A stretch of DNA of 64,000 nt from the NCBI GenBank assembly GCA_964627505.1, contig CAZVKB010000004.1:3295-67294 (forward strand), given 5' to 3'. Shown here piece by piece: positions 1-59,520 of the stretch. Source of the stretch: an uncultured Actinomycetes bacterium. GTDB taxonomy: Bacteria; Actinomycetota; Actinomycetes; S36-B12; UBA10799. The stretch's first letter is position 1. Each line of letters begins with the position of its first letter. The notes beneath the pieces were generated by a model. That model was not told the DNA's origin. It ran no database searches and worked only from the letters and a program-made list of their open reading frames with translations. The position numbers were made by a program, and so were the translations under genes.

Positions 1-481
1 CGACCTCGATCAGATGCTGGCAGCGATCACCGAGGTACGGACGCTGGGCTATCCGGGTGTAGTTCTCGGAGCACTTAGCTACGGCCACATCGTCGAACCC
101 GATTGGCAAGTTCTGCACGTACTTATGTCTGCGTGTCACGGTTTGGAAGTGACGTTTCATCGTGCCTTCGACCATGTGACTCAGCAAGCCGAGGGCATCG
201 GCAGGTTGGCGGACTTAGGCGTGCGGCGGATCCTCACCAGTGGCAAACCAGGCCCCGCGGTGGAACATCTCAGCTGTCTGTCCTCGCTCCTAACATCCGC
301 AGCCAACGCTGGAGTTGGACTCATGGCAGGCGGCGGCATCTCCAGTTCGAATGCCCATAAATTGCTCGCAATCGGCATCAATGAGATCCATGCCTCCGCT
401 GGCGGTTCCCAAGGTGCCCAGGACTTATTCGAGGTGCGTAATCTCGCCGGACAGCTGGCTCGGTGGCCGTCAGGATCTTGA
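1..481 (+). CDS. cutC: Copper homeostasis protein CutC family, C-terminal part; the 5' end lies outside the window
   Basis: The reading frame is open to the window edge. TFHRAFD and GVRRILTSG motifs and the C-terminal GGGI...EIHAS segment are typical of CutC TIM-barrel proteins. Confidence 0.8.
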   Translation, partial: DLDQMLAAITEVRTLGYPGVVLGALSYGHIVEPDWQVLHVLMSACHGLEVTFHRAFDHVTQQAEGIGRLADLGVRRILTSGKPGPAVEHLSCLSSLLTSAANAGVGLMAGGGISSSNAHKLLAIGINEIHASAGGSQGAQDLFEVRNLAGQLARWPSGS

Positions 482-503
482 TCACCACCGCTGACACCCC
501 GCT

Positions 504-1253
504 TCACCCCGGTCGCGGATAACACAGTCCCGACGGGCTAACTGCTAGCCCCGGCGTCTGCATGTCCCATGTGAGCTCGCCCATGTGAGCCCGCAGAAGT
601 GCCGGCAACACTTGCGCTGTCGCGCGGGCATCGCCGAGAGCCGTGTGCGCATCGTTGAGATTCACATGCGCCCAGGAGCACAGGGTGGACAGTCGATAGT
701 CCGGACACGTCACCACCTGCCGAGCCAGCCGCAGCGTGTCGATCGCCGGCAACGTGGGCACATCCCGCTCCACGCCCGCAAACGCCGCAGTGAGGAAACC
801 CGCCTCAAACCTGGCGTTATGAGCAACCACCACTGCCCCGCCTAACCAACACAGGATGTCGTCCACCACCTCCCGAAACCGCGGTGCATGCGCCACCATG
901 TCATTGGTGATTCGGTGGATGCCGACGGCTCCAGTGTCTCGACCGCCACCTGGATTGATCAGGGTGGACCACTCGGCTTGCGGTTGCCCGTCGGCACCCA
1001 CCCGAACGATGCCGACTTCCACAATCCGATGGCCCTGCGCTGGGCTCAGCCCAGTCGTCTCCAGGTCCACCACCGCATACCCATCCCGGCCGCAGGGCGT
1101 ACCAGCGAAGGCCCCCGGGTAGCTGAAAAGCGGTCTCGGCGTGGCCTTCACAGCCGCCAACGTTACGCCGGGTTCGCGCGTTGCAGCCGACTGCCTCGGC
1201 GCCGCTGGCCAGAATCGGCGCCAACCGGCGCCCACCTGCTTGGACATTGCCAA
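504..1253 (-). CDS. DEDDh-type 3'-5' exonuclease (DnaQ/epsilon-like) with an N-terminal extension of about 55 aa
   Basis: ExoI motif VVDLETTGL, ExoII VAHNARFEAGFL and ExoIII HTALGDARATAQV. The start codon is uncertain within the first ~50 codons. Confidence 0.8.
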   Translation of the reverse strand: MAMSKQVGAGWRRFWPAAPRQSAATREPGVTLAAVKATPRPLFSYPGAFAGTPCGRDGYAVVDLETTGLSPAQGHRIVEVGIVRVGADGQPQAEWSTLINPGGGRDTGAVGIHRITNDMVAHAPRFREVVDDILCWLGGAVVVAHNARFEAGFLTAAFAGVERDVPTLPAIDTLRLARQVVTCPDYRLSTLCSWAHVNLNDAHTALGDARATAQVLPALLRAHMGELTWDMQTPGLAVSPSGLCYPRPG

Positions 1254-1335
1254 CCTCCCCCTCTGGACACTTTGTCCCGATAGCAGCCATCGTGATGGCC
1301 ACCTCCGACAAAAAACCGCCGGAAGGGTCGAGTGG

Positions 1336-3075
1336 TCAAGCCGAGGTGCGCTGCTGGGCCAAGCCTTCCTGTGTTGCCAGAATCAGCAAGCGGTCCCGAG
1401 CCCTGGTGACTCCTACGCTGATCAGATCGTGATAGGCCCCGCGGCTAGATGCATTGAGATCCGTGAGGATCACCGCCGGTGCCTCCAACCCCTTGAACGA
1501 GTGAATCGTGGAGTAACGCACCCGGCCTTTCTGTTTTGGCCCACCTCGGCGGTAATCCACCAGCAGCGGGCTCAGCCAATCGTCAGAGCACAACGCCGCA
1601 GCAGACTTCCGATAGCGACTCAGCACCACAATGTCTGACAACTCGAAACCGTCGGCCACCAAAGTCCGCACTGCCGCAACCAGCAACTCAGCCTGCTCTT
1701 CCGGCGTGGTGTAGGTGTGCAGCACCGGCTGATAACCGTCTGCGGGCCGACGATACGAGGCATACATATGATCCACCCCGCACAATTCGGCCGCCTCTTC
1801 GGCAATTCCAGGGACATTGCGGCAGTTGGTGGTCAGTCGAAATGTTGCGAATGAACCTGCCCGGTCGAGTAGTTCCAGACCAGCGGCTCGGGCATACAGC
1901 GCCTGGTCATCAAAGTCCCCGAAGAACAGCGCCCGGCCTGAACGCAGCCCGCCGTGCACCAGATAGTCGACCACCTCCAGCCAATTCTCCCGGCAGAGGT
2001 CCTGCACCTCGTCCACGATCAGGTAGTCAGCCGGGGCTAGCGCCGACGAACCGGCTTCCCCCACTTCGGACGCGGCTGCGGTATCCCGCGCGGCTACCAG
2101 CACTTCCCAAGCTGACACCGGCAGGGACACCTCCCAAAACTCGCGATCAGTGTCCTGACTCGCCGGCAATCCGGTGATGTCGAGCATGAGCTGCGGCAAC
2201 GTGTGCACGCTGAGACCGTCGATGTCTTCGGCCTGCTCGGACAGGTAACGGGCCAATGCGTGGTTGAAACACAGCAATACACCTCGTTTCCCCCGCGCAG
2301 CCTCCCGCCTCGCCGCTTCCAATGCCAGGAAGGTCTTTCCACACCCGGGCGGACCGGTCACCAATACCTGCTGATTGCCACTCAACCCATCGAGCACCAT
2401 CACCTGCTCGTCCAGCAAACGCGCGAGTTCTTGTTCGCGAGCGGCACGAATATCCTTTGGACTTGGGGCCACGTGGAGATGCGGCTTCAATCTGGCCGCA
2501 ATGGCGTTGGTTTGCTCCAGACTCGGTCCGATCACAGCAGGCCACTTATGACCCTTGTCGGCCCGGTTTGCACGTCCGGCGGCAAGCAAACGAATGATCG
2601 CCCCGGGCACGTCTGCTTCCAGATCCGTGTTGTCCAACACCTGCCAACCAAACCATTCCACACTCCCGGGCAACTCTCGCTTGGCGGGCGCGTGGGTGAA
2701 CCACACCCCGGCCTCGAAATGCACCGCGGTCAGGCCCATCCGCGAGTTGAGATACTCCCCGATCGCAAACTTTGCGTTATCCGCTTGGGCAAAAGGACTG
2801 TTCGAGGTAGGGGGCCGACGCCCCAACCGCCACATGCCGTTGCTGTCGCGTGACACCGAACGATGCGACTTCACTTCGATCACGGCAACACCGTGCCCCG
2901 GCACCACCACTACGAAGTCGGCCTCACCGCGCTGTTGGCGAGGATGATCGGCCAGCCGCAACGAGTGCAATGCGATCCAATCATCGCAATCCGGGCTCGC
3001 AGCCAAGGCACGGAACAGTGCCTGCTCGCCCGGTGGGGCATCGTCGCTGATGATGGGCGGAATCATCACCACCAT
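1336..3075 (-). CDS. NERD-domain (PD-(D/E)xK nuclease-like) protein fused to a UvrD-like SF1 helicase / AAA ATPase
   Basis: N-terminal GEADFVVV...VAVIEVK nuclease-like motif. Walker A GPPGCGKT, Walker B LIVDEVQDL, and a C-terminal STIHSFKGLEAPAVIL UvrD_C-like motif. I chose the ATG at 3075 because GGAGG lies 7 nt upstream; the ORF stays open to 3168. Confidence 0.8.
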   Translation of the reverse strand: MVVMIPPIISDDAPPGEQALFRALAASPDCDDWIALHSLRLADHPRQQRGEADFVVVVPGHGVAVIEVKSHRSVSRDSNGMWRLGRRPPTSNSPFAQADNAKFAIGEYLNSRMGLTAVHFEAGVWFTHAPAKRELPGSVEWFGWQVLDNTDLEADVPGAIIRLLAAGRANRADKGHKWPAVIGPSLEQTNAIAARLKPHLHVAPSPKDIRAAREQELARLLDEQVMVLDGLSGNQQVLVTGPPGCGKTFLALEAARREAARGKRGVLLCFNHALARYLSEQAEDIDGLSVHTLPQLMLDITGLPASQDTDREFWEVSLPVSAWEVLVAARDTAAASEVGEAGSSALAPADYLIVDEVQDLCRENWLEVVDYLVHGGLRSGRALFFGDFDDQALYARAAGLELLDRAGSFATFRLTTNCRNVPGIAEEAAELCGVDHMYASYRRPADGYQPVLHTYTTPEEQAELLVAAVRTLVADGFELSDIVVLSRYRKSAAALCSDDWLSPLLVDYRRGGPKQKGRVRYSTIHSFKGLEAPAVILTDLNASSRGAYHDLISVGVTRARDRLLILATQEGLAQQRTSA

Positions 3076-3387
3076 GGGTCGGCCTCCGCTCGCGTTTGCA
3101 ATAACGGTGCAGAGTCCCGGTCGCCAGGCCCCCGCCATCGGTCCGCATACCTGGCCATCCACCGTCACTGTTGACGTTGCCCGCTGCCCTGCCCGTCCAT
3201 CCTGCCGTACCGAGTGACCCAGCGATGACTTTTCCCTTGTTGATCATGAACTGCCGAGAAATGGCAGCGCATACCCGATGACGCCAACCGCGCTGGCCTT
3301 ACATTCCGCTTACAAAAAGTGCAGACGGACTCCACATCGCCCCGACACGTTGGAAACAGACACAGAATCCAGTGATTGGGGCGCCAC

Positions 3388-4803
3388 ATGAGTGTGACCA
3401 CGTTTACCCAGCCATCAGCCCCGCCGAACGTCACCCCCGCAGGGTCGGTGGCGGCGCGCAGCGGACCGACCAGGCCCAAAACCCGTCATCGGCTCTCAGC
3501 CACGGATGTCGCTGGGGTCATTGCCGGTGTACTCGGTGGCCTCATCCTCGGCTCGGGTTGGGTGCTAAGTGCACAGAACTGGAACACACCCGGCGGTCCG
3601 CTGACGGTCCTCGGATCGCTCACTGCCCTGCTCGGCACCTACCTCTGCCTACTTCTGATCGTCATCGTGGCCCGGGTGCCGTGGCTGGAACACCGCATCG
3701 GCCAAGACCGTCTGATCGCACTGCACCGTCGAATTGCGCCTTGGGCTATCGGGCTGATCACCGTGCATGTGCTGGCCACCACGTGGGGATATGCGCAGGC
3801 CGCTGGTATCGGGGTGTGGCGACAACTGGTCGAACTCGTCACTGGATACGCATGGATGGTGCCTGCGAGTGTGGCCTTGGTGGCCATGCTGTTGCTGAGT
3901 TTGATCAGCGTGCGTGCGGTACGGCGACATCTGAAGTATGAAACATGGTGGGTGGCACATCTGTACTTCTATCTGGCGGTGGCATTGGCCTTCGGCCACC
4001 AACTGAGCGCGGGTTCGATCTTTCCCGGTCAGCCGTGGGCCCGCGCAGGGTGGATCGCACTCTACGTGGGTGTCGCCGGGCTGGTGCTGGGAGCGCGGGT
4101 TGTCCTGCCGCTGGTCCGGAGTTGGCGTTATTCCTACCGCGTCGCCGAAGTTGTCACCGAATACCCGGGTGTCGTGGATGTGACGATCACAGGACGCCAT
4201 CTGGAGCGGCTCCCCGTGTGCGGCGGGCAGTTCTTCGAGTGGCGCTTCCTCACCCGCCAGTGGTGGTGGCAGGCACACCCCTACTCACTGTCCCGCGGAC
4301 CAGATGGCCAGACACTGCGCATCACCGTGAAGGCGCTCGGCGATCAGAGTTCGGCGATCGACCGCCTGCGTCCCGGCACCAGAGTGATCGCCGAGGGGCC
4401 CTACGGAATCTTCACCGCTGCCCACCGCACTGGCGGTGCCAGCGTGGTGGCGGTGGCCGCTGGTGTAGGTGTGGCACCGGTGAAATCGCTGTTGGACACG
4501 CTGGGTCCAGCCGATGACGTCAGCCTCATCTACCGGGTACCGGACCTCGCACCGGAATCCATTGCACTGCGGGCCGAGGTTGAGGCGATGGTGGCCAAAA
4601 ATCATTGGCACCTGGTGTATGTACCTGGCGCACCCGAGGCCTGCACCATGACCTCAGACATGCTGGTGCACCTGGCACCGAGCGCAACTGCTGCGGACAT
4701 CTTCGTCTGTGGGCCCCAGCAGTTCACGGCCACTGTGGTGTCGGCGGCCCGGGGCCTCGGTATCCCGCCCGAACGGATTCATCATGAACTCTTCACATTC
4801 TGA
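3388..4803 (+). CDS. Ferric-reductase-like transmembrane protein with a C-terminal FAD/NAD(P)-binding ferredoxin-reductase module
   Basis: Multi-TM N-terminus with paired His (HRRIAPW...TVHV; HLYFY...FGH). HPYSLS is an FAD-binding RxYS-type motif. GVGVAP is an NAD(P)-binding motif. An alternative TTG start lies at 3376. Confidence 0.8.
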   Translation: MSVTTFTQPSAPPNVTPAGSVAARSGPTRPKTRHRLSATDVAGVIAGVLGGLILGSGWVLSAQNWNTPGGPLTVLGSLTALLGTYLCLLLIVIVARVPWLEHRIGQDRLIALHRRIAPWAIGLITVHVLATTWGYAQAAGIGVWRQLVELVTGYAWMVPASVALVAMLLLSLISVRAVRRHLKYETWWVAHLYFYLAVALAFGHQLSAGSIFPGQPWARAGWIALYVGVAGLVLGARVVLPLVRSWRYSYRVAEVVTEYPGVVDVTITGRHLERLPVCGGQFFEWRFLTRQWWWQAHPYSLSRGPDGQTLRITVKALGDQSSAIDRLRPGTRVIAEGPYGIFTAAHRTGGASVVAVAAGVGVAPVKSLLDTLGPADDVSLIYRVPDLAPESIALRAEVEAMVAKNHWHLVYVPGAPEACTMTSDMLVHLAPSATAADIFVCGPQQFTATVVSAARGLGIPPERIHHELFTF

Positions 4804-4839
4804 GCCGTTCATCCCATCAGCGAAGAAAGGACGCCAATC

Positions 4840-5316
4840 ATGAAGCGCGCAATCATCGTCACGGCCGGCACGGTCGTGGGAGTAGGGGCTGCGCTTGCCT
4901 ACACTCCGCGGCCGCCCGCACTAGCCCTGCCCAGTGCGAGTGTGGTGCCGCCGATTTCCCCGCAAGCACCGAGCGCTCCGACCAGCCCGGTAACAGATGG
5001 CGCAGCTTCGGCGGTTGACACTGCTCTGCCCACCGCACCCAGCGGCGTGTTCACCGGAGACGTTGTGAGTACCCGATTCGGGGATATCCAGGTGCAGATA
5101 GCTGTTGCCCAAGGTGTGGTGCAGGATGCCGTGGCGGTGACCTACCCGGCGCTAGACGCCAAGTCGGCCGCCATTTCGGCGGCAGCGGTGCCGACCCTGC
5201 GCAGTGAGACGCTCGCTGCCCAATCCGCCGAGATCGCCACCGTCAGTGGTGCGAGCTATACCTCAGACGGGTGGGTCACCTCGCTGCAATCGGCGCTCGT
5301 CCAAGCAGGTCTGTGA
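4840..5316 (+). CDS. Exported FMN-binding domain protein with an N-terminal membrane anchor
   Basis: N-terminal TM/signal segment, an Ala/Pro/Ser linker, and a C-terminal FMN_bind-like domain. The flavinylation-type motif TVSGASYTS is encoded at 5245-5256. Confidence 0.75.
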   Translation: MKRAIIVTAGTVVGVGAALAYTPRPPALALPSASVVPPISPQAPSAPTSPVTDGAASAVDTALPTAPSGVFTGDVVSTRFGDIQVQIAVAQGVVQDAVAVTYPALDAKSAAISAAAVPTLRSETLAAQSAEIATVSGASYTSDGWVTSLQSALVQAGL

Positions 5317-10498: not shown

Positions 10499-11329
10499 CT
10501 AGTTGGGCACCGGCGCGCAGTACTGTTCGGGACTTTGATCGGCGATGATGTCCACTGTGGTGCCCTGGCGGACAACGAACTCGCTGGCACCAATCTTGTT
10601 GGCGGGATCGCCCCAGTCGTACGTGTATCCCATGCGGGTCCATGGGTACGGGTTGGCAGGGTCGTAGGCCAAGGCTTTCTGCAAGCGGAACCAGTCGGCG
10701 TGGTTGGGGTATGCCGGGTCCTCAGGTTGCACAGTGCCGTCGTCGTACACGGCAGTGGTGTCAGCAATTTGGGGATCGGGCGTCGGCCGGAACATGCCAG
10801 ACAGCGGGACCATCATGGTCACCATAGTCACCGGTTTGGCGTGCGGCGGCATGCCCAGGTATTGCAGGGAGCGCAGTGCCGGATCGGTGCCACCCGCCGC
10901 GACATAGGAACGGCAGAAATCCTGCAACTCCGGCACCGGAGTCAGCCAAACTTCGCGACTGAGAGTCATGGGCTGGCCGACACTGTCCGCATAACCAGTC
11001 CAGTCCGTCAACGTGACCATTTCGGCTGCCGTGTTGTCGGCGTTGAACACAACGTTCGAGGCCCCTGGGGTGAGGGCCACCAACGAGGGCGCCAACTGGT
11101 CGGGCCCGGCAGTTTCGGCATCTGCCACCGCAGCTAGGTACGCCGCGGGCAACTGGGTAGCGGTGGGGCTGGCTGCGGCAGAGGCCGAAGTGGAACTCGC
11201 TGTTGCGGTCGGGTCGGTGCTGGTGTCCGTGCCACTACATCCGGTGACAGTCAGACCGAGCGTGAGGACGAACCCGGCAGCCACACTTGGTTGAACCATT
11301 CGCATAGTGATCACGTTACGCCTGGCCAC
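10499..11329 (-). CDS. Hypothetical lipoprotein
   Basis: Signal peptide with lipobox LTVTGC, followed by a Ser/Thr/Ala linker. I recognise no catalytic motif. Confidence 0.6.
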   Translation of the reverse strand: MARRNVITMRMVQPSVAAGFVLTLGLTVTGCSGTDTSTDPTATASSTSASAAASPTATQLPAAYLAAVADAETAGPDQLAPSLVALTPGASNVVFNADNTAAEMVTLTDWTGYADSVGQPMTLSREVWLTPVPELQDFCRSYVAAGGTDPALRSLQYLGMPPHAKPVTMVTMMVPLSGMFRPTPDPQIADTTAVYDDGTVQPEDPAYPNHADWFRLQKALAYDPANPYPWTRMGYTYDWGDPANKIGASEFVVRQGTTVDIIADQSPEQYCAPVPN

Positions 11330-59403: not shown

Positions 59404-59520
59404 GGTGGCGTTGGCTGGCCGGAATTGGCTCACGACCTTCGAGAACCGAGGTGGCTGCCAGAGCAGGTATCACGGGACATCTAGCTCATCTGGGCTGTCG
59501 GATGTGGCGTCCATGATCGA

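Follow-up and report, generated by a model that had tools for sequence, protein, structure and literature searches.

Nhi (nuclease-helicase immunity), found in staphylococci, is reportedly a single polypeptide that joins a nuclease to a superfamily 1 (SF1) helicase, and its description is said to be that of Bari et al. in 2022. In this study we analyzed a gene for a protein of that general plan, together with the gene just downstream of it, in a 64-kb stretch of DNA (called the window here) from an uncultured Actinomycetes bacterium (contig CAZVKB010000004.1). The first gene encodes a NERD-type nuclease domain fused to a UvrD-like SF1 helicase; the second, on the same strand, encodes a DnaQ-like DEDDh exonuclease. 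A sequence-only reading had proposed that the two might form a nucleic-acid defense or repair pair, with Nhi as the closest analogy. Our results place the helicase in a family that is a module of defense systems, namely DISARM-like operons and reverse transcriptase (RT) systems, and show that the window copy is an orphan of that family. The interpretation that we prefer, with a probability of roughly 0.4, is that the helicase and exonuclease are a domesticated DNA-processing pair that would serve genome maintenance, with loose cooperation at most, and not a dedicated defense system.

The likeness to Nhi proved to be a working analogy only, limited to the presence of a nuclease and an SF1 helicase in one polypeptide. 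The PADLOC model for Nhi matched the window helicase with an E value of 1e-3 and only at residues 234–269, the P-loop (Walker A) segment; Nhi was therefore set aside as a different family and not retained as the closest analogy. The NERD–SF1 helicases of DISARM-like operons, such as those of Gordonia araii and of Rhodococcus opacus plasmid pROB02 (WP_050785280.1, annotated as 'NERD domain-containing protein'), have the same length and the same invariant motifs as the window protein. In those operons the helicase is flanked by a C5-methylase, two proteins designated X and Y, DrmA, and DrmB, whereas the window copy lacks all of these, carries clade-specific substitutions, and has a DnaQ-like exonuclease on its 3' side instead. 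The architecture of NERD plus C-terminal helicase is also that of the NERD-helicase associated with the UG34 RT. The best PADLOC match to the window helicase (3e-26, in three stretches) was RTasNERD-Hel, the counterpart of the 'cluster 485' described with UG34 (PMC9226505), and the C3a187 model 'NERD+UvrD' matched at 5e-13. RTasNERD-Hel came out best because the helicase family has an RT-linked branch. Members of that branch are only ~29–32% identical to the window helicase, which adjoins a DEDDh exonuclease and a ferric reductase and not a reverse transcriptase; assignment to the defense-associated RT (DRT) UG34 system was rejected on this basis. Gabija was also rejected, since the matches to GajB were partial (best 8.6e-12, residues 351–495) and there was no OLD nuclease among the neighbors. 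Overall, the GajB, AbiO, Mokosh, and MADS models gave partial, domain-level matches only.

Two further systems resemble the locus in their logic. In one, a fusion of a RelE nuclease to an SF1 UvrD-like helicase is encoded beside a YprA/DrmA-type superfamily 2 (SF2) helicase, an arrangement analogous to that of the DISARM-linked relatives; it has RelE where the window helicase has NERD, and the window contains no YprA-family partner. In the other, MrfAB of Bacillus subtilis, a YprA-family helicase acts with a DEDDh exonuclease in DNA repair, as summarized in PMC12458937. MrfAB provides a precedent for a repair reading, in that a defense-related helicase is paired with a 3'–5' DEDDh exonuclease. 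MrfA, however, is an SF2 YprA helicase and the window protein is a NERD–SF1 helicase, and MrfB was not among the solved-structure matches of the window exonuclease.

The helicase gene was called as an open reading frame from 1336 to 3168 on the minus strand. Because the N termini of homologues begin with MVVMIPP or MIPP, and because the Shine-Dalgarno (SD) sequence GGAGG lies 8 nt 5' of the ATG at 3075, that ATG was taken as the start (Table 1). The fusion of 579 residues described by the sequence-only reading was confirmed. The Pfam scores were 45.1 bits for NERD (PF08378; cut-off 22.1), 33 bits for AAA_19 (cut-off 25.1), and 38.8 bits for UvrD_C_2 at residues 520–565 (cut-off 27.4), and the motifs were intact. 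In an alignment of 66 homologues the PD-(D/E)xK catalytic triad D53/E67/K69 was invariant, as were GxGKT (244–248), DExQD (355–359), D387 and Q391 of the motif III sequence GDFDDQ (386–391), the NCRN motif that follows it, and R558 and D561 of TRARD, which is helicase motif VI; a further core motif, FKGLEA, lies between NCRN and TRARD. By its Walker A and B sequences, motifs III, V, and VI, and UvrD_C-type end, the protein is assigned to the UvrD/RecD-like SF1 class. In a confident AlphaFold2 model (mean predicted local distance difference test score, 88.7), a helical linker joins the alpha/beta nuclease domain at the N terminus to a compact core of two RecA folds. The Foldseek matches of the model were generic SF1 proteins (SLFN11/14, IGHMBP2, RecD2, Rep, UvrD, Upf1, and Dna2), with query-normalized TM-scores of 0.47 or less, and no close relative was found among solved structures by sequence. 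These features are consistent with an active ATP-driven nuclease-helicase in which a NERD endonuclease would be fused to a minimal SF1 motor.

A profile search (E ≤ 1e-30) found the helicase family in at least 3,019 representatives of 50%-identity clusters, distributed throughout Actinomycetota and beyond; the best 150 of the 3,019 were nearly all full-length proteins of ~570 residues. A genome scan with the full-length alignment responded to generic patterns (P-loop, DExQD; at least 11 loci). With a NERD-only alignment, 80 metagenomic loci were retrieved, and their adjoining genes were then clustered. When the helicases themselves were clustered at 70%, they formed 45 lineages, 25 of them DISARM-linked and 20 non-DISARM. 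The commonest arrangement was a C5-cytosine methylase, X (~330 residues), Y (~520 residues), the NERD-helicase, a protein of ~1,170 residues, and a protein of ~640 residues, with genes that frequently overlap stop-to-start. The ~1,170-residue protein, encoded directly after the helicase on the same strand, is DrmA (PADLOC, 5e-197), and the ~640-residue protein that comes next is DrmB (PADLOC, 3e-59; Pfam MZB/DUF1998). X and Y had no Pfam or PADLOC match. A cultured example is pROB02 (locus L112, 6867–16062), in which the same operon is annotated, with Vsr, NaeI, HNH, and Dcm genes next in line and no phospholipase D (PLD) DrmC. The operon is also present in G. araii (NZ_BAEE01000050.1; L003, 1154–12028), in L029–L059, and in others. 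No PLD gene (DrmC) was found after DrmB in L003 and L112, the two loci with sequence beyond DrmB, and the NERD-helicase may replace the roles of DrmC, DrmD, or DrmE in this operon variant. Among the papers searched, a single one mentions NERD together with DrmA and DrmB, and there the term belongs to TALON, not to DISARM.

The window copy stands apart from this arrangement. Searches of the 64 kb by tblastn with DrmA, DrmB, X, Y, and the C5-methylase of L003 found no homologue; N6-methylases were not searched. On the absence of DrmA, DrmB, and the C5-methylase, the window locus was not classed as a DISARM system. By homology only, its helicase belongs to the DISARM-associated NERD–SF1 family: it is 43–46% identical to the DISARM-linked helicases over ~570 residues, and the family profile scores those helicases at 1e-240 or better. 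In a neighbor-joining tree, DISARM-linked members fill nearly all of the deep branches. The helicases of the window, L012, L109, L013, L017, L019, and L020 form a monophyletic solo clade, whose sister group is the main DISARM-linked clade. None of the last four loci has DISARM genes. Most solo loci have housekeeping neighbors, such as PEPCK, WhiB, thioredoxin, and DUF179 genes (L017 and L020) or a citrate synthase gene (L019), and in the window the two genes lie between those for CutC and a ferric-reductase/FAD-type oxidoreductase. Several residues with 85–100% conservation in the DISARM-linked members differ in the solo clade; for example, a Tyr that is 100% conserved in the latter is Ser or Asn.

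The gene order ferric reductase, divergent helicase, exonuclease, and CutC or DUF2804 was kept in five related loci with helicases 77–100% identical. The exonuclease was also seen in three of these relatives. Each contig reaching far enough had both the helicase and the exonuclease, and the contig of L116 stops inside the helicase, short of the exonuclease position. The sequence-only reading had held that conservation of the pair at this locus across the family would speak against a defense role; what was found comes near to that, for a narrow clade only. Relatives with a 62%-identical ferric reductase have a different gene at this locus. The window and L012 share 81% identity in the helicase and 58–88% in the flanking genes. 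The ratio of nonsynonymous to synonymous substitution rates (dN/dS) of the helicase is ~0.06, indicating strong purifying selection, and the GC content at third codon positions (GC3) of the helicase and exonuclease genes (0.70–0.72) is equal to that of the flanks. Taken together, synteny, dN/dS, and composition point to a vertically inherited, functional enzyme, and neither to an island nor to a decaying remnant.

The exonuclease open reading frame extends from 504 to 1253 (minus strand) if a TTG start is used. The ATG at 1247 was preferred because it is preceded by the SD sequence GGGGGAGG (1254–1261), is conserved in relatives, and was chosen by gene callers in two of them (246–247 residues). 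The 82-bp gap between the genes reported earlier is correct to the TTG and becomes 88 bp to the preferred ATG. The identification as a DnaQ-like DEDDh exonuclease on the same strand was borne out by the RNase_T match (PF00929, 91.6 bits; cut-off 24) and by the presence of all five catalytic residues (D61, E63, E148, H201, and D206; alignment A5), of which E148 in Exo II is a conservative D-to-E change. In the same alignment, Glu replaces the canonical Asp of Exo II (HNAxFE) in the stand-alone exonucleases of the MFSYP type; among longer forms with a BRCT-like domain, Asp is kept in two of three (L061 and P0201) and Glu is found in P0215. The nearest solved structures were the PolC exonuclease domain and the epsilon subunit of DNA polymerase III (E ~1e-18), which have the DEDDh fold and catalytic residues in common with the window enzyme. 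The latter differs from them in the Glu of Exo II and the MFSYP N terminus, and shows no sign of being a replicase subunit; it scored 92.5 bits with the NCBIfam dnaq subfamily domain (cut-off 71.5 bits) and under the cut-offs of all of the NCBIfam epsilon equivalogs.

The N-terminal extension of ~55 residues that the sequence-only reading called unusual divides into two parts. Residues 1–39 are a clade-specific leader that appears to be weakly constrained, with a dN/dS of 1.0 against L012 and 0.43 against L109, compared with 0.12 for the exonuclease core, and there is an alternative conserved GTG start at 1151 (V33). Residues 40–57, (M/L)FSYP...G(Y/F)A, are the usual N terminus of this exonuclease family, and Nanopelagicales exonucleases begin exactly at MFSYP. 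Only the first part is therefore unusual. Homologues with ~50% identity are solitary proteins of 209–255 residues in Nanopelagicales-type genomes, where the gene occurs in a synteny of FUSC_2...exonuclease, P-type ATPase/hemerythrin, and patatin; one such homologue was found on hundreds of contigs. The P-type ATPase/hemerythrin, patatin, FUSC_2, and YaaD genes of that synteny were not found in the window.

PADLOC also lists PDC-S48, a single-gene defense candidate of ~410 residues composed of a DEDDh exonuclease, a middle region, and a BRCT-like C terminus. The window exonuclease matched this model at 7e-61 but only over positions 4–178 of 411, and the short Nanopelagicales homologue P0147 gave the same partial match; by comparison, a full-length PDC-S48 protein in L061 (408 residues) matched positions 1–405 at 2e-163. 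Membership of PDC-S48 was rejected, since the match covers the exonuclease module only and the window protein is of the short, stand-alone MFSYP type, like P0147. A literature search did not find PDC-S48 by name. The defense link proposed earlier is supported for the helicase family, through its PADLOC matches and DISARM-like operons.

The exonuclease gene lies 3' of the helicase gene only in relatives with at least 79% helicase identity; relatives with 52–60% identity (L013, L017, L019, and L020) have none adjoining, and beyond the narrow clade the association of the two genes is not conserved. A DEDDh exonuclease was present within 2.5 kb of the helicase in 4 of the 20 non-DISARM lineages versus 0 of the 25 DISARM-linked lineages. 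The four are the window clade, a Microbacteriaceae-like clade, the RT-linked L096, and a distant locus, L005. This recurrence is more than expected by chance, given a background rate that was estimated from the few such genes per genome and not measured, and some link between helicase and exonuclease is possible. The recurrence speaks for the idea of a pair, the narrow range of the adjacency against it.

The other three lineages differ in organization. In the Microbacteriaceae-like clade (L001, L044, L047–L049, L061, and L063), in which the helicase is conserved and its GC3 is ~0.9, the signal is ambiguous. The stop codon of the helicase is the exact point at which relatives cease to be homologous in DNA sequence (e.g., L063 from 6815 onward). 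The island beyond it is variable and of lower GC3, with genes for an AbiE-like toxin-antitoxin, a nucleotidyltransferase with E1/E2-like proteins (CBASS-like), SNF2, a PglX-like methylase, or the full-length PDC-S48 exonuclease-BRCT protein; in L061 and L063 the PDC-S48 gene is immediately 3' of the helicase gene. The helicase gene in this clade looks like the anchor of a defense-island hotspot. In L096 (1292–9217), which represents a low-GC branch adjoining a retron-type reverse transcriptase, the genes encode a 441-residue protein without assignment, a DEDDh exonuclease (281 residues), a 332-residue helix-turn-helix (HTH)-type protein, the NERD-helicase, the reverse transcriptase, and a 494-residue protein; this locus is likely to be an RT-based defense system with a helicase of the same family. 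In L005 (3239–8188), from a distant actinobacterial metagenome-assembled genome, a 25%-identical NERD-helicase gene is divergent from that of a 250-residue DEDDh exonuclease with its own ~65-residue N-terminal extension. The latter gene overlaps (ATGA) a gene for a second, UvrD/GajB-like helicase of 607 residues, and an open reading frame of 233 codons lies on the other side.

The spacer between the two window genes varies from 37 to 105 bp among relatives and is poorly conserved except for a promoter-like block, a hairpin, and the SD sequence. In five loci (the window, L110, L111, L012, and L109) the block contains TGTCGG-N10-CAnnnT, always equally far from the ATG; its invariant part can be given as TTTnTGTCGGAGGTGG-N6-CAnnnT or TGTCGGAGGTGG-N6-CAnnnT. 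The consensus of PafBC-dependent (RecA-NDp-type) promoters is tGTCgg(N10)tA(N3)T (PMC8635444). From this resemblance, the exonuclease appears to have a DNA-damage-type (PafBC-like) promoter of its own. The hairpin, predicted with RNAalifold in the 5' leader, has seven pairs, two of them with compensatory changes, in three lineages. Elsewhere in the window, a relaxed PafBC-type pattern was matched at 475–496 (minus strand), 11035–11056 (plus strand), and 59496–59517 (plus strand). The match at 59496 (TGTCGGATGTGG...) is similar to the block before the exonuclease; it has no suitable gene downstream, and this match and that at 11035 were taken as chance occurrences.

These observations suggest the following history and mechanism. 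Relatives of the window helicase usually form one subunit of a DISARM-like restriction operon or of an RT system, and its ancestor would have been a subunit of a DISARM-type system. The window clade would have shed all such partners and then been inherited vertically in housekeeping neighborhoods. In one narrow sub-clade the helicase gene would have come to sit just 5' of the lineage's stand-alone DnaQ-like exonuclease gene, which would have kept its own damage-type promoter. The helicase may load on DNA ends or branched DNA and unwind them, the NERD site may cut, and the exonuclease may trim the released 3' strands, so that a component of a defense ancestor would have been co-opted for genome maintenance or DNA-end processing. 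A bolder version, in which a domesticated DISARM subunit and a PafBC-controlled exonuclease constitute a minimal helicase–endonuclease–exonuclease resection module, a convergent counterpart of MrfAB in uncultured aquatic actinobacteria, seems to us improbable at present.

Several observations weigh against the domestication reading. Every context in which the family fits a recognized system is a defense system, the Microbacteriaceae-like solo helicases directly border variable defense islands, and GmrSD-like, Fic, and HTH genes lie next to the helicase of L013, a member of the solo clade. The recurrence of exonucleases in 4 of 20 versus 0 of 25 lineages is compatible with a nuclease–helicase–exonuclease module that would be equally usable for defense. 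The comparison with near relatives rests on metagenomic contigs, and 64 kb of the window genome is visible. The promoter assignment has its own difficulties. One position of the block, the −10 element's first base, departs from the PafBC consensus, and the pattern was not enriched in the window alone (3 found versus 2.1 expected). An alternative reading of the same block is an SD sequence, GGAGGTGG, with an NTG codon 8 nt downstream that would open a leader reading frame. As a true exonuclease start or conserved upstream reading frame, GGAGGTGG-N8-NTG was rejected: it is in frame with the exonuclease in L012, in the +1 frame in the window, and followed by an immediate stop in L109. Because the frame varies among lineages in this way, it is not a conserved coding start; a role as a regulatory ribosome-binding element is possible.

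The strongest competitor is that the orphan helicase, with or without the exonuclease, is a stand-alone defense that restricts phage or plasmid DNA in the manner of Nhi: after recognition of free ends or of foreign replication intermediates, it would unwind, cut, and degrade the DNA. We consider this somewhat unlikely. Its appeal lies in the defense associations of the family (RTasNERD-Hel, C3a187, DISARM-like operons, and RT systems), in catalytic residues that are intact and under selection, in the DEDDh exonucleases of the four non-DISARM lineages, which include full-length PDC-S48 proteins in L061 and L063, and in the Microbacteriaceae-like solo helicases that abut defense islands. Against these stand the core-like synteny and composition of the window locus, its vertical inheritance, and the lack of presence/absence variation among close relatives. 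Neither a methylase nor any other partner for telling self from non-self was found in the 64 kb, with N6-methylases not having been searched. The exonuclease is the ordinary stand-alone type of its lineage and does not have the PDC-S48 architecture, and its apparent damage-type promoter is its own. The helicase had no homologue in a phage collection of 50,697 records and only two plasmid matches, and the Nhi model matched no more than the P-loop. Residue replacement in the solo clade and conservation of both genes in a housekeeping neighborhood speak for the domestication reading.

That reading allows loose cooperation at most, and it is also conceivable that there is none: the two genes may have unrelated roles and may have become neighbors through a rearrangement in the ancestor of the narrow clade, without cooperation or shared regulation. 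The restriction of the adjacency to helicases at least 79% identical, with each gene solitary elsewhere, is consistent with this, as are the variable spacer with its own promoter-like element and the finding that the Microbacteriaceae-like exonuclease sits within a variable island starting exactly at the helicase stop codon. Simple juxtaposition nevertheless appears unlikely, since exonucleases recurred in four independent lineages of the 20 non-DISARM and in none of the 25 DISARM-linked, with the chance rate estimated and not measured, and since the same-strand tandem order has been maintained across ~20% protein divergence. Much less probable still is that the helicase works in trans as a DISARM subunit, its partners DrmA, DrmB, and a methylase having their genes beyond the 64 kb that are visible. 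The full-length homology and the sister position to the DISARM-linked helicases would fit such an arrangement. In all 25 DISARM-linked lineages, however, the helicase gene is tightly embedded in the operon, where stop and start codons frequently overlap; seven independent solo loci, each with 2.5–8 kb of flank on each side, have no DISARM gene; and residues highly conserved in the DISARM-linked members have been replaced in the solo clade.

The coordinates of the features are collected in Table 1. The intergenic region between the divergent helicase and ferric-reductase genes has a GC content of 0.603, compared with a window mean of 0.635, and 18% of all 300-bp segments have a value no higher than this; the sequence-only reading had singled out the promoter region as less GC-rich than its surroundings, and this no longer seems noteworthy. 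Alignment of four relatives revealed conserved blocks in the region (CCAACGTsTCG..TGTGGAG..TCTGCACkTTTTGT..GGAATGTAAAG and CCATGATCAAC). The CCATGATCAAC box lies within a unit of ~15 nt that is present in three to four tandem copies in L109 and L116 (counterpart regions ~495–856 and ~1061–1365, respectively) and in a single copy in the window and L012. This box may be the binding site of a regulator. A scan for sigma-70 promoters and intrinsic terminators in 300–3500 gave nothing useful, no mycobacterial SOS box (TCGAAC-N4-GTTCGA, up to three mismatches) was found in 1–3500, and no Rfam family was found in 1–5000.

Table 1. Positions of the genes, domains, motifs, and noncoding elements of the helicase–exonuclease locus in the window
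Feature	Position	Strand	Basis
NERD + SF1 (UvrD-like) helicase coding sequence, 579 residues, stop included	1336..3075	-	Open reading frame, homologue starts, SD sequence, Pfam
NERD (PD-(D/E)xK-type) nuclease domain, residues 16-112	2740..3030	-	Pfam PF08378, E 1.7e-11
NERD catalytic residues D53; E67; K69	2917-2919; 2875-2877; 2869-2871	-	66-homologue alignment
SF1 helicase core, residues 213-579	1339..2439	-	Pfam, alignment, fold match
Walker A, GPPGCGKT, G241-T248	2332-2355	-	
Walker B, DEVQD, residues 355-359	1999-2013	-	
Helicase-exonuclease spacer, 88 bp (helicase stop to ATG)	1248..1335	-	Open reading frame coordinates
Block TGTCGGAGGTGGCCATCACGAT, putative PafBC/RecA-NDp-type promoter-like element	1289..1310	-	Conserved in five loci
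Small conserved hairpin in exonuclease 5' leader, followed by SD sequence GGGGGAGG	1262..1280	-	RNAalifold
Stand-alone DEDDh (DnaQ-like) 3'-5' exonuclease coding sequence, 247 residues, stop included	504..1247	-	Open reading frame, Pfam, conserved ATG and SD sequence
RNase_T/DEDDh domain, residues 59-214	606..1073	-	Pfam PF00929, 91.6 bits
Clade-specific N-terminal leader, residues 1-39, weakly constrained	1131..1247	-	dN/dS, alignment
Divergent intergenic region, helicase/ferric-reductase gene, 300 bp	3076..3375	.	Four-relative alignment

Databases label members of this family merely as 'NERD domain-containing protein' or 'nuclease-related domain-containing DEAD/DEAH box helicase'. The present analysis assigns the family to a type of DISARM-like operon common in Actinomycetota, in which it supplies the nuclease-helicase subunit, and it is also found in some RT systems. 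Single-protein PADLOC matches such as those to RTasNERD-Hel and PDC-S48 would mislabel the ordinary-looking chromosomal locus described here as a defense system. The window copy is a testable case of a defense component that has survived as an orphan, either as a stand-alone defense or as a co-opted repair enzyme. If domestication and a resection module prove to be true, the locus would be an example of a defense gene turned repair gene.

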